Shown here in pieces: positions 8,608 through 50,707 of a stretch of 60,525 nt of DNA (the first letter of the stretch is position 1; every line of letters starts with the position of its first letter). The stretch is from Patescibacteria group bacterium (GTDB lineage: Bacteria; Patescibacteriota; Minisyncoccia; UBA6257; Colwellbacteraceae). The stretch lies in assembly GCA_022705565.1 (NCBI GenBank), contig JAKJEF010000002.1, forward strand, positions 1-60,525, in the 5' to 3' direction. The translations under genes and the position numbers were made by a program. Under the pieces are notes generated by a model. It did not search any database. It worked only from the letters and a program-made list of their open reading frames with translations, and had not been told where the DNA came from.

Positions 8608-8638
8608 ATTATATCATATCTTGCCGCGGTTTTGTCAA
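8608..8638 (-). promoter_or_regulatory. Putative groES promoter: TTGACA-N19-TGATATAAT (extended -10)
   Basis: On the minus strand: TTGACA at 8638..8633, TG-n-TATAAT at 8616..8608, and only 10 nt between the -10 and the ATG at 8597. Confidence 0.5.
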
Positions 8639-8683
8639 GCCGTTTTAAGACGACCTCCGATTGCTTGACGGCTTTCCCGAAGG

Positions 8684-9715
8684 TCATTCCTCGGCTTCGG
8701 GCTTTTCCAAGACCATCGGCTCGATATTTGCCGTCGAACCGCTGATCCGCAAAACGTCTTTGTCTATTTTCCCGAATTCCTTGTAGGCCTGGTTGTACAT
8801 TCCGACCGAGGTCCCGAGATGGCTTCCCAGCTTTTTCATGTATCCTTCGTAGCTCGCCAGATGCTTGCCGAGCTCCTCCACCCGTTTTTTGATCTCCTTG
8901 GCCGATTCCTCTATCTGCAGAGCTTTGAGACCCTGGAGCACGGTTTGGAGATAGGCGAGAAAGCTAGTCGGAGAAACGATGATCACGTGTTTTTCCTTGA
9001 AAGCGTATTCGATCAAATCCCTCGTGTTCGTTTTAACCGCACCCACTTTATTCACCAGGAGATCGTAATAAATCGCCTCCGAAGGAATGAACATGAAAGC
9101 GAAATCCATGGTGTTCTCCTCCGGACGCACGTATTTCGAGGTTTCGTCGATGCGGTTTTTCAGATCGTCCCTGAATTGTTTTTCCAACTCCTCCCTTCTC
9201 TGGGAATCGTTTTCTGACAATATCCTTTCGTAGTTCTCCAAGGAGAACTTGGAATCCACCGGAATGATCTTGTCCTTCACGAAAACCGCGGCGTCCACCA
9301 TTTCGCCGTCTTTGAACTTGTACTGCATTTCGTAGGAATTCGGCGGCAGGACGTTCTTAAGGGTCTCTTCCAAAAAATACTCTCCGAGCACTCCCCTTTG
9401 CTTCGGGTTTTTGAGGATATCCTGGAGATCTTTCAGCTGATCGGCCAAACTCACCACCTGTTTCTGGCCTTCGCCCACCTTGGTCAGCTCCTCGGTGATC
9501 TCTTTGATCATCCGGCTGCTTTCGCCGAACTGCGACTGCATCACCTTTGGCAGTTCTCCGAGTTTCGCGTCCAAAACCCGGCTCATTTCGTTGATCTGGT
9601 TTTGAAGCAATATCAAAGAATTGTCGGCCGGTTTCGACTTTCTCAAGAGCAAAAACAAAGCAACGCCCAAAAGCGACAAGAACAAAATTATGACCGCCCA
9701 GAAAACTATTTCCAT
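8684..9715 (-). CDS. rmuC: DNA recombination protein RmuC
   Basis: N-terminal TM helix, coiled-coil region and RmuC C-terminal region. The ORF opens at a TTG (9781), but I prefer the ATG at 9715 (MEIVFWAVII..). The start is uncertain. Confidence 0.8.
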   Translation of the reverse strand: MEIVFWAVIILFLSLLGVALFLLLRKSKPADNSLILLQNQINEMSRVLDAKLGELPKVMQSQFGESSRMIKEITEELTKVGEGQKQVVSLADQLKDLQDILKNPKQRGVLGEYFLEETLKNVLPPNSYEMQYKFKDGEMVDAAVFVKDKIIPVDSKFSLENYERILSENDSQRREELEKQFRDDLKNRIDETSKYVRPEENTMDFAFMFIPSEAIYYDLLVNKVGAVKTNTRDLIEYAFKEKHVIIVSPTSFLAYLQTVLQGLKALQIEESAKEIKKRVEELGKHLASYEGYMKKLGSHLGTSVGMYNQAYKEFGKIDKDVLRISGSTANIEPMVLEKPEAEE

Positions 9716-9761
9716 GGGTTCTATTTTAGACCAAAAAAAGCCGGCTCGCCACCCGATGGTT

Positions 9762-11096: not shown

Positions 11097-11097
11097 C

Positions 11098-11550
11098 TCA
11101 TCTTGTTTCTTCGGTAAAGGTAATTTCCAAGGTGCGCACGATCTGACCGGTTTCGTCCTTGCCGACGGCATACCATCTTTCGATTAAAGGATCTTCCGGC
11201 CGTCGGGCAGGCCTACAATCCTCCGGAGGATGCCTGATATCTGAACATTTTATATAAACCTGGAAGCTTTGTCCGTCCAGGCTTCCATCTCTGTTGTTCG
11301 CTTCCGGAAAACAAGAACAAAGATCTCCGTCTTCCGAAGCGCAGCAGCCGAACCGGCCCATCAATATCCTTTCGATGCCGGCGTCGGCCGAAAAAAGGGC
11401 TTGGGTCGACTGGCTGATGCTCGATGCTTGCCGCAGTTCGTAAACCACAAGCAAATTGGCCAAAGCCGTCGCTCCGAGAATGACGATCGACATGGTGAAA
11501 ACCATGAAAAGCATGGTTTGTCCTTTGGGTATTTTTCTCCGGATATCCAT
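11098..11550 (-). CDS. PilX-N-terminal-like pilus assembly protein
   Basis: 150 aa. The N-terminus KGQTMLFMVFTMSIVILGATALANLLV is hydrophobic and PilX_N-like but lacks Glu at +5. It sits in the pilin operon. Confidence 0.5.
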   Translation of the reverse strand: MDIRRKIPKGQTMLFMVFTMSIVILGATALANLLVVYELRQASSISQSTQALFSADAGIERILMGRFGCCASEDGDLCSCFPEANNRDGSLDGQSFQVYIKCSDIRHPPEDCRPARRPEDPLIERWYAVGKDETGQIVRTLEITFTEETR

Positions 11551-11551
11551 A

Positions 11552-12076
11552 TTATGATTCGGGTGGCCGATAATAGAACAACCTTTCGCTGACCGTTGTT
11601 TGGAAAGTGAGCGGACCCTTGAACAAAGAGCTTTCTACCTGAATTTTGATCGTTACCCTCGGCGGATAATAAGATAGCTGCGGCTGGATAATATCGAACT
11701 TCAAATCCGTCACTTGAACGTCGTCGGCGGTCAAACGTTTCGGAAAATCGCTGCCGGTTTTTTTGGTGATGTAATCTCCGTCCGGCGCTTTGGCGTAAGT
11801 CACTTCCTGTTGCTGATAATTGGTGAATCTCAATGAACTGTCCCCCTCAAGCGTGCTGTAATTCGTACCCGTTCTTATTTCTCGCGCCATTTGCTCTATC
11901 ACTAAAGCGAGATTGTCGAGGATGGCCGTCTGATTGGCCACGTTCCGTTCCGCTTTCAAGGAATTGGTGAAAATGGAGAGGATCATGAAAACGACTCCCA
12001 CGAAAATTCCCAAAGTGACGGTGACTTCCACCAGGGTGAATCCGGATTTTTTGGAAAAATTCGTCATATTTGTCAT
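11552..12076 (-). CDS. Prepilin-type N-terminal cleavage/methylation domain protein (minor pilin)
   Basis: The signal reads SKKSG-FTLVEVTVTLGIFVGVVF. Confidence 0.8.
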   Translation of the reverse strand: MTNMTNFSKKSGFTLVEVTVTLGIFVGVVFMILSIFTNSLKAERNVANQTAILDNLALVIEQMAREIRTGTNYSTLEGDSSLRFTNYQQQEVTYAKAPDGDYITKKTGSDFPKRLTADDVQVTDLKFDIIQPQLSYYPPRVTIKIQVESSLFKGPLTFQTTVSERLFYYRPPES

Positions 12077-12594
12077 TCCGCGCGCCAGCCGACGAAGTCC
12101 GTGGCTATTGTCGACGAACTAAGCGTGGTCGGATGCCTCGGATCGCGCCAAGCAACGGTGGCCGTCGCCCTGATTTTATAACTGGATATAGGCGTGATGA
12201 CGATCCACCTTTTGAAAATCGTCGGCTCGCCCGAGTCATAACTGTATAAGTTGTTATTATCGATATTCAAGAACCTCGTTTTCTCGAAAGCTCTTTCATC
12301 ATCGCAAGGCTTTAAATCGTTTCCGATATCTGCCGCGTCATACTGTACTTCAAAGCATTTGGATTCGGAAAAATCGTGATTCCAAGCGGCCCCTCTGACG
12401 ACATTGCTGTCCAGAATGTTTTTCGTCACCTCTAGGCCTTCGGCCGCCAGATTGGCGGCGATGAATTGGTCGGTGACGACCGAACTTGTCCGAAGGGCGC
12501 TTACCGCCAAGCTAAAAATACCGAGAACGCTCGAAACGATGATCCCCATGGCGATCATACCCTCGACGATGAATTGCCCTTTGGCGCTTCTCAT
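12073..12594 (-). CDS. Pilin-like protein (atypical prepilin signal)
   Basis: The N-terminus reads MRSAKG-QFIVEGMIAMGIIVSSVLGIF with Glu at +5. It overlaps the next gene by 4 nt. Confidence 0.6.
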   Translation of the reverse strand: MRSAKGQFIVEGMIAMGIIVSSVLGIFSLAVSALRTSSVVTDQFIAANLAAEGLEVTKNILDSNVVRGAAWNHDFSESKCFEVQYDAADIGNDLKPCDDERAFEKTRFLNIDNNNLYSYDSGEPTIFKRWIVITPISSYKIRATATVAWRDPRHPTTLSSSTIATDFVGWRAE

Positions 12595-12614
12595 ATTGTT
12601 TGATTATAGCCGGT

Positions 12615-13184
12615 TTAACGGACTATCGAAACCATACCCGAAGAGAGAACCCTCACTTGCCGCGGGGTTCCGGATCCGTCCCTCGCCCTGATAACTATGG
12701 TCTTTCCGCCTTCCTCATCGGCTCCGGGATCGAACGCCACCGCCGGATCCGGAGGAATAAACGATATTTTCTGTTCTCCACTTTCGAAGACTACAAGCGG
12801 ATCAAGGGTCATCGAATAAAGCGATCCCTCCGAAGACAAATCAGACGGCAAGCCAATGGCATTTTCTAAACACACCCCTCCTTCCCCTTGATCCCTGAAG
12901 ATATAAGCGCGGTTTTCTCCGGGGACGATATGCACGCCGTACCCGCAGACAAGCCCACCCTCGGGATCGGCCAAAGTGGCGACACTCAAAAATCTGGCGT
13001 AAGTGATAAGACTCCTTAATTCTTCCTGACTTTTGGAAAGGGTGAATTCTCTTTTGATCGAACTTCCCGAAATGCTTATCGACATCAAGAGCAATGAAGT
13101 GATGCCGATCGTCACCACCATTTCAACCAACGTGAATCCTTGCGCCGATTTTTTAGGCGAGGTTGAAAAACCGGAAATAGCCAT
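12615..13184 (-). CDS. Prepilin-type N-terminal cleavage/methylation domain protein (minor pilin)
   Basis: The signal reads KKSAQG-FTLVEMVVTIGITSLLL. Confidence 0.8.
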   Translation of the reverse strand: MAISGFSTSPKKSAQGFTLVEMVVTIGITSLLLMSISISGSSIKREFTLSKSQEELRSLITYARFLSVATLADPEGGLVCGYGVHIVPGENRAYIFRDQGEGGVCLENAIGLPSDLSSEGSLYSMTLDPLVVFESGEQKISFIPPDPAVAFDPGADEEGGKTIVIRARDGSGTPRQVRVLSSGMVSIVR

Positions 13185-13998
13185 TACATATATTAAAGCC
13201 CAAAAAAACGATTAAGAGAATCCCGGCTGCCATGAACGGACCGAAGGGCAGCATGTCTTTCATCTTTTTTCTCCGTAAAAACAGACTTATTCCGCCGAAA
13301 AATCCGCCGAGAATAAAAGAAAGCATCAAAGCTAAAACTATATCCGGCCAGCCGATAAAAAGTCCGGCGGCCGCGCCGAGCTTCATGTCGCCCATACCCA
13401 TTCCCCTACCTCGGGTTAAGAAAATCAATCCCATAAAAAGCAATCCTCCGAATAGCGCGGCTGCCAAGTGATTCAAAAAAATATTCTGCCGCAGTCCCAA
13501 AACGCTCGCGTAATATCCAATAAACGACCCTTCGGTCAGGCCGAAGGCTTTAGTCTGCCACCCGAGCAAAACGTACAATACTCCCAAGAGTCCGATAAAG
13601 AGATTCAGCTCGTCCGGAATCACCTGGAAATAAAAATCGATGAAAGACAGAACAAGAAGGCTTAATGCGAAAAGCGCGATCAAAAGCGCTTTCAAAGTCA
13701 GCCCCCATTTGAGATAAGCCGCGACGAGAATAATTCCAGATAAGATCTCGACGATCGGATATTGCCAAGATATTTTCCTATGGCAAGTTCGACACCTTCC
13801 TTTCTGTACAAAAAAGCTGAAAATCGGAATAAGCTCGAACCATCGAAGCGTCTTACCGCAAGAACGGCATTTTGACCTGCCGCCGAGATGTTTGCCGACC
13901 AAAGCGGTTTTATCCGGATCGTATCGCAAAATCACGACATTCAAAAAACTGCCGATGCAAATGCCGAAAAAAAACAGAATCAGAGAATTAACGATCAC
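13153..13998 (-). CDS. pilD: Prepilin peptidase (A24 family)
   Basis: 281 aa and polytopic. It has CxxC..CxxC (CRSCGKT..CRTCHRK) and the Asp-containing motif GMGMGDMKL. Confidence 0.9.
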   Translation of the reverse strand: MIVNSLILFFFGICIGSFLNVVILRYDPDKTALVGKHLGGRSKCRSCGKTLRWFELIPIFSFFVQKGRCRTCHRKISWQYPIVEILSGIILVAAYLKWGLTLKALLIALFALSLLVLSFIDFYFQVIPDELNLFIGLLGVLYVLLGWQTKAFGLTEGSFIGYYASVLGLRQNIFLNHLAAALFGGLLFMGLIFLTRGRGMGMGDMKLGAAAGLFIGWPDIVLALMLSFILGGFFGGISLFLRRKKMKDMLPFGPFMAAGILLIVFLGFNICNGYFRFFNLA

Positions 13999-14005
13999 TA
14001 TCGGA

Positions 14006-14467
14006 TTATTTCAAGCAGTAAAGCTTATTCTGGCCACAAGCAATTCCGAAAGTGGCCACTTCTATGCCGCCGGCCGGGATACCTCTTTCCATGGTCGCCC
14101 CCAAAACGTAATCGAAACCCCTTGGAGTCTCCACGCCATATTGATAAGGATTTCCTTGCGGGTCCTCTTCAGGAATATCATCCGCATCAGCTACGGCGGG
14201 AATAAGTGCTGTTCTTAATTGTTCCCAACTAACTGGACTAGTGACGTCCGCCGAACAGCTGGCGCCGCCCGCCCCCGGATAATGATTACATTTATTATAA
14301 TAAAGCTCCAAATAGGTCTGGACTTTTTTTAAATCCGCCATCCTTTTGGTATCTCTCGCATTCGATTGAACACTCTGTGTGCCGCTAAAGACCAACCCCA
14401 TCAAAATGCCGATGACCGCGATAACGATCACCATTTCGATCAATGTAAAACCTTTTTGCGATTTCAT
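14006..14467 (-). CDS. pilA: Type IV pilin (probable major pilin)
   Basis: 153 aa. The signal reads MKSQKG-FTLIEMVIVIAVIGILMGLV. It is the first pilin gene after pilC. Confidence 0.8.
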   Translation of the reverse strand: MKSQKGFTLIEMVIVIAVIGILMGLVFSGTQSVQSNARDTKRMADLKKVQTYLELYYNKCNHYPGAGGASCSADVTSPVSWEQLRTALIPAVADADDIPEEDPQGNPYQYGVETPRGFDYVLGATMERGIPAGGIEVATFGIACGQNKLYCLK

Positions 14468-14535
14468 GTTTTTAAATTGATTTGCGACTTTTATTTTTAT
14501 CGTTGACCCGAGTTTATGTATTTATTCTACCCGAA

Positions 14536-15744
14536 TTAGAGCGTGGAGACAAACTGGAACATCGGCAGGAGAATCGAGGCGAAAAGCCCGGCCACGGCGC
14601 CGCCGATGACGATCATCAAGACCGGCTGGATAAGCTCCACCAGGTTGCCGACGGTTTCGTCGACCTCGCGGCTGTAAAATCCGGAAAGTTTGGATAAAAG
14701 CTCGTCCAAACGGCCGGTGGTCTCTCCAACCGCCACCATCTGGCTCACGAGCGGAGGGAAAAGATCCTGGTTCTTGGCGAGAGACTGCGACAGCAGTTCT
14801 CCCCGTCTGATATCTTCGGCCGAGGATTTCAGGGCCTCGCCGTAAATCATGTTGCCGATCGTGTCTCCGCTGATCTCCAAGGCTTGGGCGATCGGAACGC
14901 CGCCCTTAATAAGGATACTCGCCGATTCCCCAAATTGGGCAATGGCGATATAACGGAACAATCTTCCGAAAACCGGCATCCGGAAAACCAATTCGTCGTA
15001 AACGATTTTTCCCTCGGCCGACCGGAAATAATCCGCGAAAAAGAAAACCAGGGCGATAATGGCAAAGAAAACCATAAACCACCATCGGGACAGAAATTGC
15101 CCGAAAACCACCAAGGCGTGGGTAAAGCCCGGCATCTGGATCCCCGAAGAGACAAACATGTCTTCGATCTGCGGCAAAACGCCGATGATAAGATAGCCGG
15201 CGACGCCGAGAAAAAGGAAAATCGTCACCATCGGATAAGTCATCGAGTTCTTGATTTTGCCGGACAAAGTCGCCTGACGCTCGTAATAATCCGCCAAGTA
15301 GTTGGCCGCCTCCTCCAGCCGGCCGGTGATTTCCGCGGACCTGATCATGTTCACGTAAAAATTCGAAAAAACATTCTCGTATTTTTCAAGGGCCTGCGAA
15401 AGCGCCAATCCGGAATCGATGTCCTGACGCACTTCTTCAATGGTTCTTTTGAGAAGGGTGTTCCTCGTTTGATCGACCAAGGTCGTAAACGTCTTGTCGA
15501 GCGGTACCTGGGCCGAAAGCAAGGTGGCGAATTGCCTCGTAAAAACCATGATGTCGCGAAGTCCTACCCGTTCGCCGAAAAACGGCAAACCGGCGAGGAA
15601 AGATTTCTTTTCCTCGCTTTCCAAAGTGAGAATGAAAAGCTCGTGTCCGGTCAGAATGCCGATGGCCGACTCCCTGGTCGGCGCTTCGACAAAACCGGCT
15701 TGAAGCTCTCCTTCTTTGGTTCTCGCTGAATACTTGAATCTCAT
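14536..15744 (-). CDS. pilC: Type IV pilus platform protein PilC (GspF family)
   Basis: 402 aa with a duplicated T2SSF-type architecture and three TM regions. Confidence 0.9.
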   Translation of the reverse strand: MRFKYSARTKEGELQAGFVEAPTRESAIGILTGHELFILTLESEEKKSFLAGLPFFGERVGLRDIMVFTRQFATLLSAQVPLDKTFTTLVDQTRNTLLKRTIEEVRQDIDSGLALSQALEKYENVFSNFYVNMIRSAEITGRLEEAANYLADYYERQATLSGKIKNSMTYPMVTIFLFLGVAGYLIIGVLPQIEDMFVSSGIQMPGFTHALVVFGQFLSRWWFMVFFAIIALVFFFADYFRSAEGKIVYDELVFRMPVFGRLFRYIAIAQFGESASILIKGGVPIAQALEISGDTIGNMIYGEALKSSAEDIRRGELLSQSLAKNQDLFPPLVSQMVAVGETTGRLDELLSKLSGFYSREVDETVGNLVELIQPVLMIVIGGAVAGLFASILLPMFQFVSTL

Positions 15745-15747
15745 GGC

Positions 15748-16818
15748 TTACATCCGCTCGAGCAGAATCCTCAACTCCGAAGGATTCAAGGAATAAAGCT
15801 CGGCGTTTTCCAAAGAAATTTCCCTTTTCTTGACGAGGTCGGCCAACGACCGGTTCAAAGTGGTCATGCCTTCCTGCAGGCTTGTCTCGATAACGAGATC
15901 GATCTGGTAGATCTTCCTTTCCCTGATCAGATTCCTGATGGCGGAATTGACGAACATGATTTCGCAGGCCGGGACGCGGCCGCCGTCGATGCGCGGCACG
16001 AGCCTCTGGGAAACGATGCCGACCAAAGTGGCGGCGAGCTGGGACGTTATCTGGCCCTGCTGGTTCGCCGGGAAAGAATCGATGATGCGGTCGACGGTCT
16101 GGGCCGCGGAATTGGTGTGGAGGGTGGAGAAAACCAAATGTCCGGTTTCCGCCGAAGTCATGGCCGTGGCGATGGATTCGGAATCCCTCATTTCTCCGAT
16201 CATCACCACGTCCGGATCCTGACGGAGCAAAGATTTTAGAGCCTGGTGGAAATTAAGGCTGTCGGTTTTAACCTCACGTTGGGAAACGATACATTTATCC
16301 TGGACAAATAAATACTCGATCGGGTCCTCGATCGTAATGATATGGTCCATCCTCTTGTGGTTGATCTCGTCGACCAAAGCCGCCAAGGTGCTTGATTTTC
16401 CGTGTCCGGCCGGACCGACGACCAAGACAAATCCCTGGGAAAGACCGGTGAATTTATGGAGGATCGACGGCAGATGCAGCTCCTCGAGAGTTTTGATCTG
16501 CGCCGGGATCAAACGGAGCGAAGCGGCCATGAATCCGCGCTGGAAAAAAACATTGACGCGGAAACGGGCCTTGTCCTCGAAAGCGTAAGAAAGATCGAGG
16601 TCGCGGTAAGTCAGGAATTTTTCTTTTTGTTCGTCGGTAAGTAGGGCGCCGATCAGGCCGGCGGTCATTTCCGGAGTCAAGATCTGCTCTTTCGGCATGT
16701 CGATCAGGCTGCCGTCGATGCGCATCATCGGCCTCCGGCCGACCGCTAAGTGCAGATCCGAAGCATTGCTCCGGGCGGTCGCGAGAAGCAATTCGTTCAT
16801 TTTTTGCCTGTAATCCAT
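15748..16818 (-). CDS. pilT: Twitching-motility (retraction) ATPase PilT
   Basis: 356 aa with Walker A GPAGHGKSSTL. It reads as PilT/PilU along its full length. Confidence 0.9.
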   Translation of the reverse strand: MDYRQKMNELLLATARSNASDLHLAVGRRPMMRIDGSLIDMPKEQILTPEMTAGLIGALLTDEQKEKFLTYRDLDLSYAFEDKARFRVNVFFQRGFMAASLRLIPAQIKTLEELHLPSILHKFTGLSQGFVLVVGPAGHGKSSTLAALVDEINHKRMDHIITIEDPIEYLFVQDKCIVSQREVKTDSLNFHQALKSLLRQDPDVVMIGEMRDSESIATAMTSAETGHLVFSTLHTNSAAQTVDRIIDSFPANQQGQITSQLAATLVGIVSQRLVPRIDGGRVPACEIMFVNSAIRNLIRERKIYQIDLVIETSLQEGMTTLNRSLADLVKKREISLENAELYSLNPSELRILLERM

Positions 16819-16864
16819 GATGTTTGTTTTATTCCTCGGAAGTTGATTTTTATTATAACACGCC

Positions 16865-18598
16865 CTATTCCGTCTCCCTCAAAACTTCTTCGATCGAGAC
16901 CAATCCGTCCAGCACCTTCAATATGCCGTCCTGCCTCAAAGTGATCATTCCCTGGCGCTCGCCTTCGTCGACGACATCGGCTTCGGTCGGATTGCCGGCG
17001 ACGATCTTTTCGAGCTCCCTCGTCATTTTCATGATCTCGAAAATGGCGATGCGGCCGGAGGTTCCCTTCCCCTTGCAGGCCGGGCATCCCGGAGAATGGA
17101 AAATCTGATAAGGTTCTTTGTAAATCAATTTCGATCTGACGTCTTCCGGAAGCTTGGCGATCTCTTCTTTGATGATCTTTTGGATTTCCGGAGAAGCGAT
17201 TTCGGTTTCGCGGCACTGTTGGCAAAGCCGTCCCAAAAGCCTTTGGGACATCATCAGGTTCAAAGCCGACGGCAGAAGAAAAGGAGGAACTTTCATGTCG
17301 ATCAGCCTCGGAATGACTCCGGCGGCGTTATTCGTATGAAGCGTGGACAAGACGATATGTCCGGTCAAAGCGGCGTTTACCGCGAGGCCCGCGGTTTCGT
17401 TATCGCGGATCTCACCGACCATGATTATGTCCGGGTCTTGTCTCAATATCTGGCGAAGGCCGGAGGCGAAATCATATCCGATTTCCGGCTTCACCTGCGA
17501 TTGATTGATCCCTTCGACAAAATACTCGACCGGGTCTTCCAAGCTGACGATATTCACGTCCTCCTGGTTCAAAATCTTCAAAAGCGCGTAAAGGGTGGTT
17601 GTTTTTCCGGATCCGGTCGGTCCGGTGACGAGGACCATCCCGAAAGGCTTCCTGATTCCCTCTTGGATGATGTCGGCATTCTTGCCGACGATTCCCAGGT
17701 TATCGAGGCCTTTCAGGCCGATGCTCGGATCGAGAACGCGGAGCGCCACTTTTTCGCCCATGGGCGTCGGGAAAGTGGCGACGCGGAAATCGATGTCCCG
17801 CCCGAAAATCACCGTCCGGAAACGACCGTCCTGCGGAATTCTTGTTTCGTCTATTTTCAGATCGGAAAGGATCTTGATCCTCGAAACGAGCGGCTGCTGG
17901 AGTTCTATGGGCAAAGAAGCCACTTCTTCCAAATCACCGTCCATCCTGAATCTGACGCGAACCCTGTTTCTCATCGGTTCCACGTGGATATCCGAAGCTT
18001 TGCGTTCGACCGCTTCCCTGAAAGTCGAAGCGACCAATTTGATGACCGGCGCTTCCTCGGCCACTCCTTTGGCTTCTTCGAGCGCCACCGGCCGCTGCAA
18101 CGAAGACAAGCCGTCGCCGGATTTGATTCCCAAAGATTTTATCGCCGCTTCGACTTCGGATTTGTAAGGATTGTATCTCCGAAGCACCAACTCCAGATCC
18201 GCCGGGGTGATGATGAAAACTCCCAAATTCAAACGATTGGCTTTGGCGATGAATCTCAAAGCGTCCTGGGCCCGGCTGTTTTGCGGATCGACCATGCCGA
18301 CGACGAGCATGTCTTTGGTCCGCGAAATCGGAGCCACCTTATAGGCTTGGACCGTTTCCTTCGGCACCAGGGCCAAAAGATCGTCGGTCAAAGAGCCCAC
18401 GTTTATTTTTTGATAAGGAATGCCGATGATCTCGCTTTTGACTTCGGCGATCTTTTCTTCGGGCACGGTTCGCCGCAGATAAAGCAGATCTTCGACCGGC
18501 TTTTGGGAAACCGCCGATTCTTTCAAAATCTGCTCGCCGGCTTCTTTGGTGAGCAGATTTTTCTTAACAAGGGCTGCCGTTAAAACCTGGGAATCCAT
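16865..18598 (-). CDS. pilB: Type IV pilus assembly ATPase PilB (GspE family)
   Basis: 577 aa with an N-terminal T2SSE_N-like region, Walker A GPTGSGKTTTLY and a C-terminal CxxC..CxxC. Confidence 0.9.
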   Translation of the reverse strand: MDSQVLTAALVKKNLLTKEAGEQILKESAVSQKPVEDLLYLRRTVPEEKIAEVKSEIIGIPYQKINVGSLTDDLLALVPKETVQAYKVAPISRTKDMLVVGMVDPQNSRAQDALRFIAKANRLNLGVFIITPADLELVLRRYNPYKSEVEAAIKSLGIKSGDGLSSLQRPVALEEAKGVAEEAPVIKLVASTFREAVERKASDIHVEPMRNRVRVRFRMDGDLEEVASLPIELQQPLVSRIKILSDLKIDETRIPQDGRFRTVIFGRDIDFRVATFPTPMGEKVALRVLDPSIGLKGLDNLGIVGKNADIIQEGIRKPFGMVLVTGPTGSGKTTTLYALLKILNQEDVNIVSLEDPVEYFVEGINQSQVKPEIGYDFASGLRQILRQDPDIIMVGEIRDNETAGLAVNAALTGHIVLSTLHTNNAAGVIPRLIDMKVPPFLLPSALNLMMSQRLLGRLCQQCRETEIASPEIQKIIKEEIAKLPEDVRSKLIYKEPYQIFHSPGCPACKGKGTSGRIAIFEIMKMTRELEKIVAGNPTEADVVDEGERQGMITLRQDGILKVLDGLVSIEEVLRETE

Positions 18599-18599
18599 T

Positions 18600-18902
18600 T
18601 TAGAAAGCGGCGAAGGGATTTTCTCTTCCGAGGCTGTTCGGTCCGATTACCGGGAGATTGATCGACCTTCCCGGATCTTCCGAAGAGAAGAATTCGTCTT
18701 GGAGCACTTCCTGCGGATTGAATTGCAAGCCGCTCAAATCGGCCACGGACTGGAGGTTGGCCGGCAGGATCGCCTCGATCAGCGGCGCCGGAGTGAAGAA
18801 AAGATAATAGGCGCCGATCGCGAGAATAGCGAGCGCCGCCGCGACGGAAATGATGATGAACGTTCTCGACCCCCTTTGATTCGGTTGAATGATGACCGCC
18901 AT
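18600..18902 (-). CDS. Small membrane-anchored pilus-locus protein (unknown)
   Basis: 100 aa with one TM helix and 1-nt gaps to both pilB and the pilO-like gene. Confidence 0.55.
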   Translation of the reverse strand: MAVIIQPNQRGSRTFIIISVAAALAILAIGAYYLFFTPAPLIEAILPANLQSVADLSGLQFNPQEVLQDEFFSSEDPGRSINLPVIGPNSLGRENPFAAF

Positions 18903-18903
18903 T

Positions 18904-19464
18904 TTATTGGTAATATGTGTTGATGATTAATTGGAGGGAATAAATATTGGCTCTTCCCGAGGCGCTGATATTCATCGAAACAATGTCCATCAGCCTCATG
19001 TTGTTCTCGACGTCGCCGATAAAAGCTTTAAGACCGTCGTAAGAGCCTTCGGCCCTGACCGTGGCTCGCAAAACCCCGTAAGCGGAAACGAGAGGGCTTC
19101 CGTTCGACTGCATCGGCGGATGCTGGAAATTGACGCTCGCCACCACCATTTGATTCGTGGACGCGAGACCGTAAATCTGCGCCAAAACATGGGGAATGTC
19201 GTCATTCAAAGGCAAGGAGCGGTCGAGATCGTCTTTGTATTGGAAGCTGTCTTCGTATTGCTGCGCCAAATTGGCGAAAGCTTCCACCTGGGCCTCCGCC
19301 ATCCGCAGAACAACGGCCGCGGCGTCCCTGTCCGCCCGAAGCTGCTTCACGCCGTTGTCGCCTTCGAATTCCGGCCTGATGAAATTGGTGAACACGAAAA
19401 CGGCCGCGACCAAAAGGGCGATGCCTCCCAAAATACTCAAAAATCTTTTAAAGGAAAAAGCCAT
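18904..19464 (-). CDS. pilO: PilO-like pilus assembly protein
   Basis: 186 aa with an N-terminal TM helix, a coiled region and the C-terminal segment GSYDGLKAFIGDVENNMRLMDIVSMNIS. Its position is after the pilN-like gene. Confidence 0.65.
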   Translation of the reverse strand: MAFSFKRFLSILGGIALLVAAVFVFTNFIRPEFEGDNGVKQLRADRDAAAVVLRMAEAQVEAFANLAQQYEDSFQYKDDLDRSLPLNDDIPHVLAQIYGLASTNQMVVASVNFQHPPMQSNGSPLVSAYGVLRATVRAEGSYDGLKAFIGDVENNMRLMDIVSMNISASGRANIYSLQLIINTYYQ

Positions 19465-19993
19465 TGTTGAAAATTATTTGCATTTGGAAAGATACTCCGG
19501 TCTGGCCGAGAGTCGCTCCGCCTATGGAAACGCTTTCCACTTCCTGAAGATTCTGGAAAACGTCGAGTTGGCTTGCTAAAGATTCGTAGGTTGAGGCTGT
19601 TCCACCGAGATTCGCCGTCAGGCTCGGAATATCGAGGTCCATCGAGCTGTAAGAAATGTCTTGTCTAGTATTCGTCTCGAGAAACGAAAATATGTTGGAA
19701 GAGAAAACATGTCTCGAAATTAATGTTTTCAGGTTTTCTATCTGGGAATAGAAATCTATGAACGTCTGCCTGTCTTGCGGCGATACTTGTTCGTTAAGCG
19801 CGTCGATCTGCGCCTGGATACTCTCCGTGTCGCTCAAGAGAAAAGGCTTATACCCGTAAGCCAATCCGAAATAGCTTACTCCCAAGAGAATGAGAATAAA
19901 CAGAGAAAATATCAAAAGTCTTGTCGGCCAACCGGCGGGCTCCCGGCCGACATTGAATCTTTGATCGATATTTGTCGGGTATTGCGGTGGCAT
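19448..19993 (-). CDS. pilN: PilN-like pilus assembly protein
   Basis: 181 aa with one TM helix, located directly downstream of pilM. Confidence 0.6.
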   Translation of the reverse strand: MPPQYPTNIDQRFNVGREPAGWPTRLLIFSLFILILLGVSYFGLAYGYKPFLLSDTESIQAQIDALNEQVSPQDRQTFIDFYSQIENLKTLISRHVFSSNIFSFLETNTRQDISYSSMDLDIPSLTANLGGTASTYESLASQLDVFQNLQEVESVSIGGATLGQTGVSFQMQIIFNNGFFL

Positions 19994-19996
19994 TTT

Positions 19997-21085
19997 TTAA
20001 AATTGCCTTAATCCGAGGCCGATCGCGACCGCGAGCGTTCCGCCCAATTCGTTCACCACGGGCTGGAGCGTCGGCGCGTAGCTCAAAGCGGAAAATGGGC
20101 TCGGCCTTTCGACTTTCATTTGCAGGAAATCCGCGGCGTATTTATCCAAGCCGGCAAGCTCGCCGCCTCCGCCGGAAAGAATCACCTTTCCGATTTGGCC
20201 GCGATAGTTCTTCTCAAAATTGTCTTTCACTCGTCTTACTTCATTAAGTATAACATCGACGTAAGGCAGCATTAAAGTGGACAACTCGTATTCTCCGCCC
20301 ATTCCGAGCAAGCCTCGGCGTTTTTTCAGTTCTTCGGCTCTTTTGACGTTGATATTCAAGCCGTTCGCGATCGCCTGGCTCATGGAACCGCCGGCGTAAT
20401 CGAGATAGGCGCTCGACAGAAGATGGCCGTCTCTCGCGACATAGAGACTGGTCGATCTTCCGCCGATATCGAGGATCAAAGAAAGCTCCGCGTCCCCTTT
20501 CGTGAAAACCCTGGCCAGGCTCATTCCTTCGATCTCGATCACCCTCAAATTAAGACCGGCGGCCTGGAAAACGCTTTTGTATTTCTCGACGATGTTGTTC
20601 GGCACCGCCGAAAGAAAGACCTGCTGCTTTTTCTGGCCTTTTTCGTCTTCGAATTCTCCGACCACCGACCATTCGGTCGCCACCGAGGCGATGGCCGCCG
20701 GCACCAAGGCTCGCGCCTGGTAAGACATGATCTGATCCATTTCGTTTTTAGGCATCATCGGCAGTTCGAGTAAAGTGGTGAAAGCGGAAAAAGGCGGCAG
20801 AGAAGCGAAAACCGCGGCCGCTCCGGGCTTCACTTCCCTGACGAGGGTCTGGAGCATGCTCGCCGCTTCTTTGTCGTCCATTTTCAAACTGCTCGTTTGG
20901 ATGGCGCTGTTCTGCCGGGAAAGATGGCTGTAAGTTTCCAGTAGTCCGTAGTTTTTGAAATGCGGCCGATCGGCGACAATGGCCAGTTCGACGAGTTTAA
21001 TCGAAGTTGTTCCGATGTCGACCCCGATGGCCGACTGGAAAGAAAGCAAAGGTTTTAGGGGTTTCAAAAAATCGAGTATCGCCAT
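19997..21085 (-). CDS. pilM: Type IV pilus assembly protein PilM (actin-like ATPase fold)
   Basis: 362 aa with VGVDIGTTSIKLVEL and a second nucleotide-binding segment ILDIGGRSTSL. Confidence 0.9.
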   Translation of the reverse strand: MAILDFLKPLKPLLSFQSAIGVDIGTTSIKLVELAIVADRPHFKNYGLLETYSHLSRQNSAIQTSSLKMDDKEAASMLQTLVREVKPGAAAVFASLPPFSAFTTLLELPMMPKNEMDQIMSYQARALVPAAIASVATEWSVVGEFEDEKGQKKQQVFLSAVPNNIVEKYKSVFQAAGLNLRVIEIEGMSLARVFTKGDAELSLILDIGGRSTSLYVARDGHLLSSAYLDYAGGSMSQAIANGLNINVKRAEELKKRRGLLGMGGEYELSTLMLPYVDVILNEVRRVKDNFEKNYRGQIGKVILSGGGGELAGLDKYAADFLQMKVERPSPFSALSYAPTLQPVVNELGGTLAVAIGLGLRQF

Positions 21086-30134: not shown

Positions 30135-30224
30135 TGGCGGAGGGTACAGGATTTGAACCTGTGATCCCGTTTCCGGGAAACCGCATTTCGAGTGCGGCGC
30201 ACTAGACCACTATGCGAACCCTCC
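30135..30224 (-). tRNA. tRNA-Ser (anticodon CGA), CCA encoded
   Basis: Hand-folded cloverleaf: acceptor GGAGGGT/ACCCTCC, anticodon loop CTCGAAA, long variable arm (CCCG-GAAA-CGGG), T-loop TTCAAAT, 3' GCCA. Confidence 0.9.
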
Positions 30225-30231
30225 ATCAAAG

Positions 30232-30304
30232 TGGACCCGATCGGACTCGAACCGATGACCTCCACATTGCAAATGTGGCGCTCTACCAACTAAGCTACAG
30301 GCCC
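30232..30304 (-). tRNA. tRNA-Ala (anticodon TGC)
   Basis: Acceptor GGGCCTG/CGGGTCC with the G3:U70 pair, anticodon loop TTTGCAA, T-loop TTCGAGT. Confidence 0.9.
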
Positions 30305-30361
30305 GAAGGATCAGGATCATAATAGCGAGTTTTTACGACTCGGACAATAAGTAAATTCTTG

Positions 30362-30434
30362 TGGACCTAAGGGGATTCGAACCCCTCGCCTCTTCTATGC
30401 CATAGAAGCGCTCTACCAAATGAGCTATAGGCCC
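30362..30434 (-). tRNA. tRNA-Ala (anticodon GGC)
   Basis: Acceptor GGGCCTA/TAGGTCC with the G3:U70 pair, anticodon loop ATGGCAT, T-loop TTCGAAT. Confidence 0.9.
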
Positions 30435-30528
30435 ATCAAAACAATGTCTATTGTAAAGGATTTTCCGGGAAAAACAAATATAAACCGCTTGTAAACAAGG
30501 TTTCTAGAATATAAGCTGAAATGGAACA

Positions 30529-30615
30529 GGAAGCGTGCCAGAGTGGTCGAATGGGCCTGTCTTGAAAACAGGTATGCCCGAAAGGGCATCAGAGGTTCGA
30601 ATCCTCTCGCTTCCG
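30529..30615 (+). tRNA. tRNA-Ser (anticodon TGA)
   Basis: Acceptor GGAAGCG/CGCTTCC, anticodon loop CTTGAAA, long variable arm (TGCCC-GAAA-GGGCA), T-loop TTCGAAT. Confidence 0.9.
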
Positions 30616-38691: not shown

Positions 38692-39507
38692 TTAGATTGC
38701 AAAAATCCGCAGGGCGTTTTTCGTGGTTTCCCTCGCCACTTCTTCCAAGCTCAAGCTTTTGACTTTGGCGATATGTTCCGCCACGTGAACGACAAAACTC
38801 GGTTCGTTTCTTTGCCCGCGGAAAGGAACCGGCGCCACGTACGGCGCGTCGGTTTCGAGAAGCAGACGATCGAGCGGGATGCGCCGCAGAACCTCATCGT
38901 AATTTCCCGCGAAAGTGATGGCTCCGCCGAAAGAAAAAGAAAAACCCATCTTAAGGAGTGTTTCGGCGTCTTGAAGGCTTCCCGTGAAAAAATGACTGAT
39001 TCCCGGCCGATCCGGAAGAAGCCGCGAGCGTTCGCTCCGAAGAATCTCGATTAGATCGGGATAAGCGTCACGGCAATGAACCATCAAAGGCTTACTTGTT
39101 TCTTCCGCCAATTTGATTTGAGCCAAAAAAATCTCTTTCTGTTTGTCTTTGGCGGCGTTCTTTAAGTGAAAATAATCCAAACCGCACTCACCTATGGCTA
39201 CCACTTTCGGGTTTTGCGCGAGCCGACAGAAAAAATCATAGTCGAATTCTTCGCTTTTTGAAACCGATTCTTCCAGATCTTCTTTTTCCGCGGCTTCGGC
39301 GTGGATCGGATGGAAACCGACAGTGGCGTAAACTCCTTTTTCGTGATCTTCGGCGATCATCACCGCTTTTTCCGAAGTCTCTTTCTGTGAGCCGACGTTA
39401 TTCAACCACACGCCTTTATCCAGAGCGCGCCGGATTACTTCTTCGTGATCGTCTTTAAAGGCAACGAACTGGACATGGGTGTGAGAATCGAAAAAAAGAG
39501 GCTTCAT
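38692..39507 (-). CDS. tatD: TatD family metal-dependent hydrolase
   Basis: MKPLFFDSHTHV.. is the typical TatD start. This ATG overlaps the upstream stop (ATGA). The ORF track extends to 39552. Confidence 0.85.
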   Translation of the reverse strand: MKPLFFDSHTHVQFVAFKDDHEEVIRRALDKGVWLNNVGSQKETSEKAVMIAEDHEKGVYATVGFHPIHAEAAEKEDLEESVSKSEEFDYDFFCRLAQNPKVVAIGECGLDYFHLKNAAKDKQKEIFLAQIKLAEETSKPLMVHCRDAYPDLIEILRSERSRLLPDRPGISHFFTGSLQDAETLLKMGFSFSFGGAITFAGNYDEVLRRIPLDRLLLETDAPYVAPVPFRGQRNEPSFVVHVAEHIAKVKSLSLEEVARETTKNALRIFAI

Positions 39508-40721
39508 CTCGAAAAAATGTTTAGTCTGTCGAGAGGGGCATGACCGCTCCATTTTTGGATGGCTGTTCCGTCGATCGCGGTGACGGTCGACATCATCGGC
39601 TGATTATACGCGTTATACGGAGTCGGAGAGTTATATAAAATACAAGTGCCGCAACAACTGGTATTGAAGTACGCCAGACCGTTGGTGCAAGTGTTCCAGT
39701 TATAACTGCTTAGGGAGTTAAGTGCCGCCGCCGGGTCTGATCCCGAGTAAGTGAATCCGGTCTGGGGACCATTAATCCCCGTAAGGGAAAAAGTGGCTGA
39801 CTTATTAAATGTAGCCTTGCCTTCGGCGGTGGTGATGGCCATTTTGGACCAGCTCGTATTCGGTATCATGTACCAATACTTCATCGCTAACCTATACGGG
39901 GAATCAAGTGAAGGAACGCCGATGGTTTGATCGAGTTGGGAGGTAAACGGCAGCGCCCATCTCGTATCGACGGGCTGCCCCTTAATCGTGGTTTGCACAA
40001 GGGTCCAGCCTCCTCCGTCGGTAGTCATATCGCAATAAACCGGAAAAGCTGGTTCGACGCCGCCACTGTCAACATCTATGAGATATAATCCGCTGGCTCC
40101 GTTCGGAAAAAGAGAATGGATGTTGTTGCAGCTTGTTCCCAGAACCGCCAAAGGGGTTAAGTCTGATCGGGAACCCGCTTCGTAGGCCAGGACGTTGTCG
40201 CCGCCGTCTTTCGAGGCTCTTTCAAGACCGATCCTCCTCGATTCGATATTCGAAGAAATTTCCCATTGCGTTCCGTCGGTGACGTACGAATAATAAAGCG
40301 TGTCTCTCGCCGAATTTACGGGATCAATCGGAAGCTGCAGTATTGTCGAACCTCCGGGTATATTGTCGAGATTGACCGGCAACCAGCCGGTTCCGTTGGT
40401 TTTCTTGAGATTCGCCGCGGTGGCGCAGTTATAAGTATATCCGGGAATTTCCGGCAGAAACGAAATATGGGTGGGACAGCTTGCCGTCGTATCTGGCAAC
40501 GATATATAGATTTTGTTCGCTTGTCCCATAGAGCCCCGGACTTTCAAGTCATAAAGACTAACGGCCGTGTTAAGTCTTTCGATATCGGCGATTCTTTGGG
40601 CGTCGCGCCCCTGACTCAAGAATTCGACCGGGTTCAAATACATGACAACCGTCGCCGAAAGCACGGCGATGATGGAAACGGTAATGAGAACTTCGATCAG
40701 CGTAAAGCTTTTTTTGCTCAT
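39504..40721 (-). CDS. Pilin-headed protein with a fibrinogen-related (FReD-like) C-terminal domain
   Basis: 405 aa. The signal reads MSKKS-FTLIEVLITVSIIAVL, and the internal segment is GLYLIDVDSGGVEPAFPVYCDMTTDGGGWTLVQT. Confidence 0.7.
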   Translation of the reverse strand: MSKKSFTLIEVLITVSIIAVLSATVVMYLNPVEFLSQGRDAQRIADIERLNTAVSLYDLKVRGSMGQANKIYISLPDTTASCPTHISFLPEIPGYTYNCATAANLKKTNGTGWLPVNLDNIPGGSTILQLPIDPVNSARDTLYYSYVTDGTQWEISSNIESRRIGLERASKDGGDNVLAYEAGSRSDLTPLAVLGTSCNNIHSLFPNGASGLYLIDVDSGGVEPAFPVYCDMTTDGGGWTLVQTTIKGQPVDTRWALPFTSQLDQTIGVPSLDSPYRLAMKYWYMIPNTSWSKMAITTAEGKATFNKSATFSLTGINGPQTGFTYSGSDPAAALNSLSSYNWNTCTNGLAYFNTSCCGTCILYNSPTPYNAYNQPMMSTVTAIDGTAIQKWSGHAPLDRLNIFSR

Positions 40722-40727: not shown

Positions 40728-42185
40728 TTATGATTCTATCCTCGGGAAAAGCGGTTTGATTTTGGAAACGCGAAGATATCCTCCTCGCCGACGGAAGCAT
40801 TTTTTTATTTTTTTCGACGTCTCCGGTAGAAACGGTTCGAGCAGTCCGGCCGCGTTTTCCAAGATCATCAGCAAATCGAAGATGACTTTCTTGTCTTTAG
40901 TTTTCCAGGGCTTGGTTTCGTTCGTGTAGCCGTCGCCGAATTTCAGGAGCTCCCAGATCGAAGCCATCGCCTCGTGGATTCTGAATTCTTCCATGTGTTT
41001 ATCCACCATAGCCTTGGCCCTTTTTATCTGAAGTTCCGTCGCCTCGGATATACGCTCTCCGCGGAAAGCCGATTCCGCTCCGAGGTTCAAAACCCTCGAA
41101 GCGAAATTGCCGAGCCCGTTCGCAAGATCGGCCGTGTAGCGCTCGACGAATTTTTCTTCGCTGAAATCACCGTCCTCGTTCGAAGGGATTTCCCGCAAGA
41201 GATAATACCGCGTCGGATCGACGCCGTATTTTCTCACGATCTCTCCGGGATAAACGACGTTGCCGAGGCTTTTCGACATCTTGACTCCTCCCGCGGTGAT
41301 GAATCCGTGGACCAGGAGTTTTTTCGGCAAAGGAAGCTTGGCGGACATAAGCATCGCCGGCCAGATGACGGCGTGGAATCTCAAGATATCCTTGCCGATC
41401 AGATGGATATCGGCCGGCCAAAACTTGTTGAATCGGCGGAGACTACCGCCTTTCCGGCCGAAACCGAGGGCCGAGATGTAATTGGAAAGCGCGTCGCACC
41501 AGACGTACATTGTCTGGTCGCTTTTCGGGATCGGGATTCCCCAGGAAAGATTCTCCCGCGAACGGCTGAAGCTTATGTCTTCGAGCCCGGTGGAGAGAAA
41601 CGACAAAACCTCGTTTTTACGCGACTCTGGCAAAATCAGATATTTGCCGCTCTCGATAAGCTTGTAAACTTCATCGCGGTAGTTCGACAACTTGAAGAAA
41701 TAATTCTCTTCTTCGATGATCTCGGGTTCGGTTTTGTGGATCGGGCAGCGTCCGTCCACCAATTCTTTTTTGGTGATGAATTTTTCGCAGCCAACGCAAT
41801 AAAGCCCTTTGTATTTTTTCTTGTAAATGTCTCCGTTTTCTTCGATCCGCTTCCAAAGAGCCAAGGCTCCGGGCCAATGACGCTTCTTGTCCGAAGTCCT
41901 GATGAAATCGTCAGGAGAAAGATTGAGTTCGGTTTTGAGCGACCGGAATTCCTTGGAAATCTTGTTGGTAAAAGCTTTGGGAGTCATTCCTGAAGAACAA
42001 ACCACGCGGCTGATCTTTTCGCCGTGTTCGTCGGTTCCGGTTAGAAAGAAAACGTCGTCGCCGAAGCTTCGTCGGTATCTCGCAATGGCATCGGCTTCCA
42101 CCAGCTCCAAAGCGAACCCGATATGCGGAGACGCGTTCGCGTAAGCGATCGACGTCGTGATATAAAATTTCTTTCTTTTCTTCAT
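40728..42185 (-). CDS. metG: Methionine--tRNA ligase (short form)
   Basis: 485 aa with a HIGH-type motif (ASPHIGFA) and KMSKS (VKMSKSLGN). Confidence 0.93.
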   Translation of the reverse strand: MKKRKKFYITTSIAYANASPHIGFALELVEADAIARYRRSFGDDVFFLTGTDEHGEKISRVVCSSGMTPKAFTNKISKEFRSLKTELNLSPDDFIRTSDKKRHWPGALALWKRIEENGDIYKKKYKGLYCVGCEKFITKKELVDGRCPIHKTEPEIIEEENYFFKLSNYRDEVYKLIESGKYLILPESRKNEVLSFLSTGLEDISFSRSRENLSWGIPIPKSDQTMYVWCDALSNYISALGFGRKGGSLRRFNKFWPADIHLIGKDILRFHAVIWPAMLMSAKLPLPKKLLVHGFITAGGVKMSKSLGNVVYPGEIVRKYGVDPTRYYLLREIPSNEDGDFSEEKFVERYTADLANGLGNFASRVLNLGAESAFRGERISEATELQIKRAKAMVDKHMEEFRIHEAMASIWELLKFGDGYTNETKPWKTKDKKVIFDLLMILENAAGLLEPFLPETSKKIKKCFRRRGGYLRVSKIKPLFPRIES

Positions 42186-49315: not shown

Positions 49316-49397
49316 TGCCCAGGGAGGGATTTGAACCCTCAAGGATTGCTCCATACGCCCCTCAAACGTACGCGTATACCAGTTCCGCCACCTGGGC
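49316..49397 (-). tRNA. tRNA-Leu (anticodon GAG)
   Basis: Acceptor GCCCAGG/CCTGGGC, D-arm GCGGAACTGGTATACGC, anticodon loop TTGAGGG, long variable arm, T-loop TTCAAAT. Confidence 0.88.
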
Positions 49398-50539: not shown

Positions 50540-50613
50540 TGGGCGATACTGGACTCGAACCAGTGACCTTCACAATGTCAATGTGACGCTCTAACCAGCT
50601 GAGCTAACCGCCC
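50540..50613 (-). tRNA. tRNA-Val (anticodon GAC)
   Basis: Acceptor GGGCGGT/ATCGCCC, anticodon loop TTGACAT, T-loop TTCGAGT. Confidence 0.9.
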
Positions 50614-50635
50614 GGCGTTTCATCAAGTGAAACTG

Positions 50636-50707
50636 TGGGCGCACTAAGAATCGGACTTAGGACCTCTGTCTTATCAGGACAGCGTTCTACCACTGAACTA
50701 TGCGCCC
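50636..50707 (-). tRNA. tRNA-Ile (anticodon GAT) with an atypical T-loop
   Basis: Acceptor GGGCGCA/TGCGCCC, anticodon loop CTGATAA, T-arm CTAAG-TCCGATT-CTTAG with C at position 55. Confidence 0.8.

Follow-up and report, generated by a model that had tools for sequence, protein, structure and literature searches.

Modular pilins, where a pilin module at the N-terminus is followed by a C-terminal domain that is not specific to type IV pili (T4P), have been described in Streptococcus sanguinis, whose PilB and PilC carry a vWA module and a ConA-like lectin module respectively (Raynaud et al. 2021, PMC8179133; Shahin et al. 2023, PMC9934059). Lectin activity has been proven for PilC, and both proteins have been proposed to be located at the pilus tip (PMC8179133, PMC9934059). 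CofB of enterotoxigenic Escherichia coli and TcpB of Vibrio cholerae, which are type IVb tip minor pilins, have C-terminal beta-rich, lectin-like domains (PMC8179133) and initiate assembly as trimers. Within the Patescibacteria, the minor pilins PilX1 and PilX2 of the Saccharibacteria member Nanosynbacter lyticus TM7x have lectin-like C-terminal accessory domains and are needed for the host binding of TM7x, which is halved upon deletion of pilX2 and inhibited by sugars (PMC11623550). Partner choice and grip in ultrasmall, host-dependent bacteria are known mainly from a few cultured Saccharibacteria. Here, a stretch of 60,525 nucleotides from a member of the Colwellbacteraceae (Patescibacteriota; assembly GCA_022705565.1, contig JAKJEF010000002.1, positions 1 to 60,525), referred to as the window, encodes between metG and tatD a 405-residue protein that is a modular type IV pilin, consisting of a prepilin signal, a pilin stalk and a fibrinogen-related domain (FReD) as its head. 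The gene adds a fibrinogen-type head to the known pilus-borne adhesin modules of Patescibacteria. With a probability of roughly 0.6, the protein is processed by the prepilin peptidase PilD and acts as a modular, likely minor tip subunit with the FReD head as its adhesive end.

By every feature testable here the protein is both a type IV pilin and a modular pilin in the sense of Raynaud et al. 2021, and its kind is already known: an architecture joining a pilin to fibrinogen-C (IPR012902 - IPR002181) is tabulated for 8 proteins, and a three-domain variant for 2, in Dataset S1 of that study (PMC8179133), and HOB89888.1 from Candidatus Colwellbacteria, which falls in the query's own 90%-identity cluster, is named 'fibrinogen-like YCDxxxxGGGW domain-containing protein' by NCBI. 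In the searched literature FReD pilins were not the subject of any study, whether experimental or descriptive, and neither their archaeal counterparts nor the metG-tatD slot was mentioned; for Patescibacteria and fibrinogen together there was a single brief reference, to giant surface proteins with fibrinogen-C domains. Like PilB and PilC of S. sanguinis, the protein combines a class III signal and an N-terminal pilin module with a C-terminal module of the ligand-binding kind; unlike them, it is encoded by a Patescibacteria bacterium, has a larger stalk of ~185 residues that is specific to the Candidate Phyla Radiation, and carries a divergent FReD in place of a vWA or ConA-like module. Like PilX1 and PilX2 of TM7x, the protein would be a patescibacterial T4P minor pilin with a lectin-like head, and the proposed biology is the same. 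Their heads, however, are a beta-jelly roll and a 7-bladed beta-propeller, their genes lie in pilus loci rather than between metG and tatD, and they lack the predicted PilD signal that is present here. With CofB and TcpB the protein shares the order of pilin module and C-terminal domain, but its head has no sequence or fold relationship to theirs.

The reading frame opens with ATG and its product begins MSKKS/FTLIEVLITVSIIAVL, where the slash marks the predicted prepilin-peptidase cleavage site, with Ser at -1 and Glu at +5. A prepilin signal with these two residues had been proposed in the initial annotation, made from the DNA letters alone, and is borne out by the sequence and by matches to Pfam N_methyl (24.2 bits, cut-off 21.2) and NCBIfam TIGR02532 (17.9 bits, cut-off 16.3). 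The Ser had been read there as a departure from the usual Gly; the residue is as stated, the oddity is not, since among the 106 stalk homologues with a locatable class III signal motif (found with a pattern that itself required Glu at +5) Gly occupies -1 in 44, Ser in 39 and Ala in 22, making Ser at this position a family trait. The cleavage site is followed by the hydrophobic segment FTLIEVLITVSIIAVLSATVV, as expected for the N-terminal part of pilin helix alpha1, and a 105-sequence alignment identified F6, T7, L8, E10, P31, D40, R43, C82, C99, G112 and W113 as stalk columns conserved at 90% or above. When the stalk profile was compared with the PDB, the best match was alpha1 of geopilin (3e-10), followed by PilA, GspG and PilE1. 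In the AlphaFold2 (AF2) model of the full-length protein (model 2; predicted template modelling score, pTM, 0.81; predicted local distance difference test, pLDDT, 93-98 over residues 11-200) the stalk has the 'lollipop' layout of pilins, a long alpha1 on a beta-sheet: a 53-residue helix (residues 8-60), kinked at P31 into helices 8-29 and 31-60, and five strands (70-76, 96-100, 144-148, 153-158 and 179-183).

Given that Ser rather than Gly stands at -1 and that the N_methyl score is barely above its cut-off, the N-terminus could be an uncleaved membrane anchor, or the gene a decaying remnant, with no function related to pili. This is very improbable for three reasons: first, Ser and Ala are common at -1 in the family, and Phe, Thr, Leu and Glu at +1, +2, +3 and +5 are at least 90% conserved. 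Second, the reading frame is intact and kept in 13 clusters besides the query's own (50-88% identity), the head being better conserved still. Third, fragments of the gene are present in RNA libraries. The ordinary uncleaved transmembrane anchor that the initial annotation had named as its own undoing also disagrees with the conservation of the signal, the matches to pilin alpha1, the modelled stalk and the presence of PilD and a T4P machine in the window, so that the N-terminus is supported as a pilin signal rather than a generic anchor. A homologue search with the 405-residue protein returned 239 proteins, and beyond the full-length relatives P0002-P0014 (50-84% identity) ~90 match only the first ~185 residues and continue into different C-terminal modules, of which LamG (PF13385) is the commonest and FGE-sulfatase/C-type-lectin-like, CBM4_9, Fib_succ, NHL, Kelch and dCache modules are others. 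Given that so many homologues carry other binding modules on the same stalk, the head looks like exchangeable ligand-binding cargo.

The hallmark of fibrinogen domains that had been noticed in the C-terminal half, GLYLIDVDSGGVEPAFPVYCDMTTDGGGWTLVQT at residues 211-244, overlaps matches to Pfam Fibrinogen_C (expectation value E 4.8e-7, 30.3 bits, cut-off 22, residues 207-249) and to NCBIfam NF040941, GGGWT_bact (E 1.2e-17, 63.6 bits, cut-off 30, residues 197-242), both of which uphold it, and a sequence search of the PDB with the whole protein returned MFAP4, intelectins, tenascins, fibrinogen beta and ficolins. The complete A-subdomain motif C..(I/L)...G.Y.I....VYCDM..GGGWTV.Q is present at residues 198-243, with C198 and C230 invariant. 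The match to the Pfam profile covers its positions 13-53 of 221 only, and a full-length FReD profile match was not obtained. Structure and family-profile comparison, which had been proposed as the check on the fold, nevertheless recovered a fibrinogen-like fold for the whole head and not for the motif alone. The AF2 model of the head (model 1, residues 186-405, built from a 31-sequence alignment) has a pLDDT of 82 and a pTM of 0.82, and the top 50 matches to it found by Foldseek in the PDB are all FReDs (E down to 1.6e-9, probability 1.0, template modelling score, TM, 0.51-0.65), in alignments that span ~230 columns of FReDs of ~215 residues and hence the whole domain. These matches include H-, L- and M-ficolin, FIBCD1, tachylectin-5A, angiopoietins, tenascins, FGL1 and fibrinogen, and many of the structures were solved with bound sugars or acetylated ligands. 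The profile of the head family matched tenascin-R (2e-25) and, over residues 9-219 of 226, FIBCD1 (2e-23). All three FReD subdomains (A, B and P) are thus recovered by Foldseek and profile, the P subdomain with low confidence, and it is supported from modelling and profile comparison that the head belongs to the FReD fold class as a complete but divergent member, which fails the full-length profile match and the Ca2+ loop of canonical FReDs.

Comparison of the 23 bacterial and archaeal members of the head family identified 63 invariant positions in the head of about 210 residues, which beyond the A subdomain include C345, C356, C357, C360, NQPM at 373-376 and an R-L-N-x-F C-terminal strand. 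C345 and C356/C357, all invariant, align with the canonical P-subdomain disulfide pair (two Cys ~13 residues apart), and C357 and C360, in the sequence CCGTC, are additional to this pair, giving six invariant Cys in the head. The head resembles the animal ficolins, FIBCD1, tachylectin-5A and intelectins in its fold, its A-subdomain disulfide, its YCDM..GGGWT motif and the Cys pair at the P-subdomain position. It differs from them in its low identity (14-21%), in the deletion of the Ca2+ loop and in the extra invariant cysteines (CCxxC), and the collagen or coiled-coil stalk through which the animal lectins oligomerise is replaced by a pilin stalk. As a compact prokaryotic FReD without the Ca2+ loop, the head bears on how this otherwise animal-centred lectin fold evolved.

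The processing enzyme and the assembly machine are both present, given that the window encodes PilD, PilM, PilO, PilB, PilT and PilC in a T4P locus ~25 kb from the pilin gene, and it is this machine that would handle the FReD pilin. It is suggested that PilD would remove the five-residue leader after Ser5, and that, by virtue of the hydrophobic N-terminal helix, the PilB/PilC/PilM-O machine could then draw the stalk out of the membrane and polymerise it. The protein would be a low-abundance, minor subunit, most likely at or near the pilus tip because a head of ~210 residues is bulky, the steric argument also made for PilB and PilC of S. sanguinis. Here the head would attach to a ligand at the surface of another cell or on biofilm matrix, most likely a glycan, an acetylated or another small polar group, as bound by ficolins, FIBCD1 and tachylectin-5A, through a family-specific site in the P subdomain that does without the canonical Ca2+ loop, and retraction driven by PilT would pull the ultrasmall cell onto its partner.

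Several points weigh against this reading. The gene lies outside the pilus locus, and leader cleavage, pilus assembly and ligand binding are all predictions. When the full-length model was searched with Foldseek, the first 50 matches were all FReDs, leaving the pilin fold of the stalk without confirmation by structure search; since FReDs filled the list, the stalk was judged from its secondary-structure layout and profile matches. The fold of the head may itself have been favoured by the four canonical or near-canonical FReDs in the alignment from which model 1 was built. Confidence in the models is lowest for the P subdomain, the part of a FReD to which ligands bind (pLDDT 60-78 in model 1, and below 50 at residues 339-374 in the stalk-rich model 2). 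The canonical Ca2+ loop (D-x-D-x-D before the first P-subdomain Cys) is absent in both MAFFT and hidden Markov model (HMM) alignments, in which an 8-residue gap faces T-K-D-N-D-N-D / S-T-E-D-R-D-N-D and the query has ALNSLSSYNWNTC, and the region of the acetyl or sugar pocket after the second Cys (the S1 site of ficolins, tachylectin-5A and FIBCD1) could not be aligned residue by residue. With the Ca2+ loop deleted and the P subdomain divergent and poorly modelled, lectin activity of the head is inferred. Finally, a glycan ligand is not guaranteed because FReDs also bind proteins, as in angiopoietin-Tie2, tenascin-PTPRZ and the fibrin knobs.

This last point raises the possibility that the head is displayed on a pilus in the same way and recognises a protein of the partner, such as an S-layer, porin or pilus protein, which would make it an adhesin and not a lectin. 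The missing Ca2+ loop and the unalignable sugar or acetyl pocket are consistent with such a ligand, as are the many protein-binding FReDs (angiopoietins, tenascins, FGL1 and fibrinogen) among the Foldseek matches and the six invariant cysteines and family-specific invariant surface of the head. However, this is unlikely: ficolins whose structures were determined with sugars give the best structural matches, most of the other heads found on this stalk have folds that bind carbohydrates (LamG, CBM4_9 and FGE/C-type-lectin-like), and for heads that are 61% identical between bacterial and archaeal carriers a ligand that is widespread and of simple chemistry is a better fit than a protein peculiar to one lineage.

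The position between metG and tatD given in the initial annotation, with a 6-nt gap on one side and an ATGA overlap on the other, was confirmed in every detail. The gene is part of an array in the order M16 peptidase, AI-2E permease, metG, pilin, tatD and leuS, with gaps of 3, 0, 6, -4 and 27 nt; the spacer after metG reads TAAAAA, and the real start of tatD is MKPLFFDS at 39507. A promoter and terminator scan of the metG-pilin-tatD run gave no convincing site, with counts near the shuffled expectation, and the sole promoter-like match, a weak one, falls inside the pilin reading frame. A compositional island signal was sought and none was found, the GC content of the pilin gene (50%) being equal to that of its flanks. 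In RNA libraries from wastewater and activated sludge, contigs match positions 39595-39845 and 40188-40350 at 99% identity or above, and one 151-nt metatranscriptome contig at 39470-39620 crosses the junction of pilin and tatD. Given that carry-over of DNA is possible, these contigs are weak evidence for expression and co-transcription, and the pilin gene is probably transcribed with the housekeeping array. The earlier claim of co-expression with housekeeping genes has as its basis the gene spacing and a single short junction contig. In metagenomes, the gene sequence was detected in wastewater, activated sludge, digesters, landfill and groundwater, and four of the sequencing runs contain 73-91% of the words sampled from it.

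The same gene order with the same FReD pilin occurs in two distant relatives (L004 and L083), in which the flanking proteins (M16, metG, leuS, tatD and AI-2E) are 44-66% identical to those of the window, the stalk 56-58% and the head 73-76%. Set beside single neighbours, the head (window 39507-40151) at 73-76% compares with 57-61% for metG, 66% for leuS and 49% for tatD. Either strong constraint or a lateral spread of the head could account for its being better conserved than its neighbours. The slot of L083 holds three modular pilins in tandem, with a LamG head, a FReD head of the query type and, in the third, a GGGWT start followed by a different Cys-rich remainder. In a close relative (L087), whose tatD is 84% and whose other four flanking proteins are 92-94% identical to those of the window, the slot is occupied by a different pilin, P0027. 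Gly, Trp, Tyr and Cys are abundant in its head, for which Pfam gave no match. The more distant homologue P0008 is encoded elsewhere in its genome. Given that L004 and L083 share the query's pilin, that L083 has three and that L087 has a different one, the slot is conserved as a place for modular pilins while its content turns over, and it looks like a hot spot for pilin replacement among relatives.

The head also occurs in archaea. Nine proteins (P0015-P0023) share the head only, at 56-68% identity (mean 61%; P0018 is 60% identical over 214 residues), and their N-termini are archaeal-type class III signals, for example KRG/LSTIVVTLILVVL and KRA/ISVVIGYVLLIA; a UpsA pilin model gave weak scores for two of these carriers. 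The archaeal identity of the carrier genome is indicated by pheT_arch (490 bits, cut-off 283), an archaeal-type PheS (517 bits, cut-off 350) and RNase P component 3. In the archaeal genome GCA_040961635.1 (L002) a pilus-type locus, seen also in L001 and L003, combines FReD-headed pilins with headless ones, and also encodes a T2SSF membrane protein and an ATPase like FlaI. The stalk of a 178-residue headless pilin of L002 is nearly identical to that of a headed pilin of 414 residues. A neighbour-joining tree of the heads separates a bacterial from an archaeal clade, with one archaeal outlier, and therefore fits one or a few transfers and not an ongoing exchange. A two-gene cassette common to the bacterium L083 and the archaeon L002, made up of a query-like pilin and a second pilin with a GGGWT head, was considered and rejected: the second heads share only the GGGWT start of ~50-100 residues, at 31% identity.

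These homologues bear on a different use of the pilin-type signal, in which it serves anchoring or display on a short pseudopilus, and the head captures soluble or polymeric substrates rather than a host, in the manner of the archaeal bindosome or of a pseudopilus like that of the type II secretion system (T2SS), so that an auxotrophic cell could scavenge sugars or acetylated compounds. Sulfolobus is an established case of sugar-binding proteins that carry class III signals. The pilin gene stands apart from the pilus locus, its neighbours being housekeeping and transport genes and a permease of the AI-2E family lying two genes upstream, and the ATPase beside the archaeal homologues scores on the model of the bindosome protein BasE (3.4e-63), though that of FlaI scores higher. 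Nevertheless, substrate capture is quite unlikely: the stalk is a full pilin domain of ~185 residues common to ~100 modular pilins and not a bare anchor, the archaeal homologues are surrounded by headless pilins in a locus of pilus type, and the proteins of such architecture known from experiment are pilus adhesins. Returning to the reading of the protein as a pilus-borne adhesin, the sharing of its head between domains raises the further possibility that the head has been exchanged horizontally between Patescibacteria and ultrasmall archaea as a host-recognition cartridge, mounted by each on its own pilin stalk and directed at the same ligand, with metG-tatD as the swap site. This proposal is tentative and, on present evidence, somewhat unlikely. 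If it were true, both groups would target the same surface ligand and possibly the same kind of host, and replacement or stacking of the pilin-adhesin genes in the slot (1-3 per genome), on constitutive housekeeping transcription, would alter partner specificity. The cross-domain sharing of the head and the swap slot are the parts worth following, and a small, very conserved head family found also on archaeal pilins, together with a slot whose pilin varies, gives a concrete way of putting partner specificity to the test.

The complete head is rare among known sequences, whereas the GGGWT piece within it is widespread. The NF040941 model covers 46 residues, and most other carriers share only that piece with the query. 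In an exhaustive search of 1.84 billion representatives of 50%-identity clusters, from which the head counts are taken (a head-only homologue search had omitted the bacterial full-length homologues), the piece was found at E <= 0.001 in 2,781 representatives and the whole-length head in 2, the bacterial P0004 and the archaeal P0018; in total, the complete head is known from 23 clusters at 90% identity. The piece of ~46 residues has at least 514 matches in bacterial and archaeal species-representative genomes, chiefly in Myxococcota, Bdellovibrio, Bacteroidota and Auribacterota. The remark in the initial annotation that such domains are best known from animals thus does not extend to GGGWT domains, given these genomes and the existence of a curated NCBIfam model. 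Many of the best matches of the piece in the exhaustive search are giant proteins, and those of 2,400-4,900 residues (P0156-P0162) carry 6-15 tandem copies of a GGGWT subdomain of ~50-100 residues, which indicates that the piece can exist alone as a repeat unit outside a full FReD. A structure search of BFVD with the head gave weak matches only (TM 0.3-0.4), to cyanophage tail-fibre-like proteins, and hints at a role of FReD-like modules in receptor binding by phages too. The matched tail-fibre-like proteins are annotated with fibrinogen C-terminal or collagen NC1 domains.

Table 1. Positions of the modular pilin, its parts and neighbours, the pilus locus and related loci (window coordinates unless another locus is named).
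Feature	Position	Strand	Basis or remark
Whole modular type IV pilin gene	39504..40721	-	Open reading frame; Pfam and NCBIfam matches; 14 full-length homologue clusters, 50-100% identity
Leader peptide MSKKS (residues 1-5), predicted prepilin-peptidase cut after Ser5	40707..40721	-	Sequence; -1 is G/S/A in 105/106 homologues
Predicted mature pilin stalk (residues 6-190): F1-T-L-I-E5, helix alpha1, beta-sheet globular part, Cys82/Cys99	40152..40706	-	AF2 model, conservation, profile matches
GGGWT / A-subdomain core (residues 197-242): SC..I....G.Y.ID......VYCDMTTDGGGWTLV, Cys198-Cys230 pair	39996..40133	-	NF040941; Fibrinogen_C; invariant in 23/23 family members
Head remainder (residues 243-405), B and P subdomains of divergent FReD	39507..39995	-	Foldseek alignments; 63 invariant head positions; without canonical acidic Ca2+ loop
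metG, methionyl-tRNA synthetase, stop 6 nt upstream of pilin ATG	40728..42185	-	tRNA-synt_1g 1.9e-102
tatD-family hydrolase, downstream, overlapping pilin stop	38692..39507	-	TatD_DNase 1e-78
ATGA overlap of pilin stop (TGA) and tatD start (ATG), gap -4	39504..39507	-	Sequence; spanned by 151-nt metatranscriptome contig
Type IV pilus locus, expected to assemble the FReD pilin, ~25 kb away	11098..21085	-	Pfam; class III motifs
PilM	19997-21085	-	Pfam
PilO	18904-19464	-	Pfam
PilB	16865-18598	-	Pfam
PilT	15748-16818	-	Pfam
PilC	14536-15744	-	Pfam
Candidate major pilin, 153 aa, MKSQKG/FTLIEMV	14006-14467	-	Class III signal motif
Prepilin peptidase PilD, expected to process the FReD pilin	13153..13998	-	A24_N_bact 4.7e-29, Peptidase_A24 2.2e-11
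Pilin-like genes	12615-13184, 11552-12076	-	Pilus locus
Pilin-like genes listed by position only	12073-12594, 11098-11550	-	No Pfam match, no class III motif
469-aa reading frame, distal end of pilus locus	9762-11171	-	One predicted membrane helix, no Pfam match
Second modular pilin, 499 aa, ...HTG/FTLVELLLVIGILG	54328-55827	-	Class III signal; FGE-sulfatase-like head PF03781 2.2e-9
Seven tRNA genes	30138-30615, 49316-49397, 50540-50707	- (four clustered, 30138-30434)	Rfam
L083 slot, three tandem modular pilins between metG and tatD	3641-7507		457-aa LamG head; 414-aa query-type FReD head; 416-aa
L087 slot pilin P0027, 389 aa, in close relative	4577-5746		Stalk 56% identical, head unrelated
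L002 archaeal pilus-type locus	7394-14388		FReD-headed pilins, headless pilins, FlaI-like ATPase, T2SSF membrane protein
L002 FReD-headed pilins in tandem	8001-9218, 9215-10459		Query-type; another type
L002 headless pilins	10534-11034, 11012-11548		

Two further products encoded in the window are of note. The 469-residue protein encoded at the far end of the pilus locus may be an adhesin or an accessory protein specific to that locus. The second modular pilin means that the genome has at least two pilins that lie outside the pilus locus and bear different heads, and its FGE-sulfatase-like head has a C-type-lectin-like fold.

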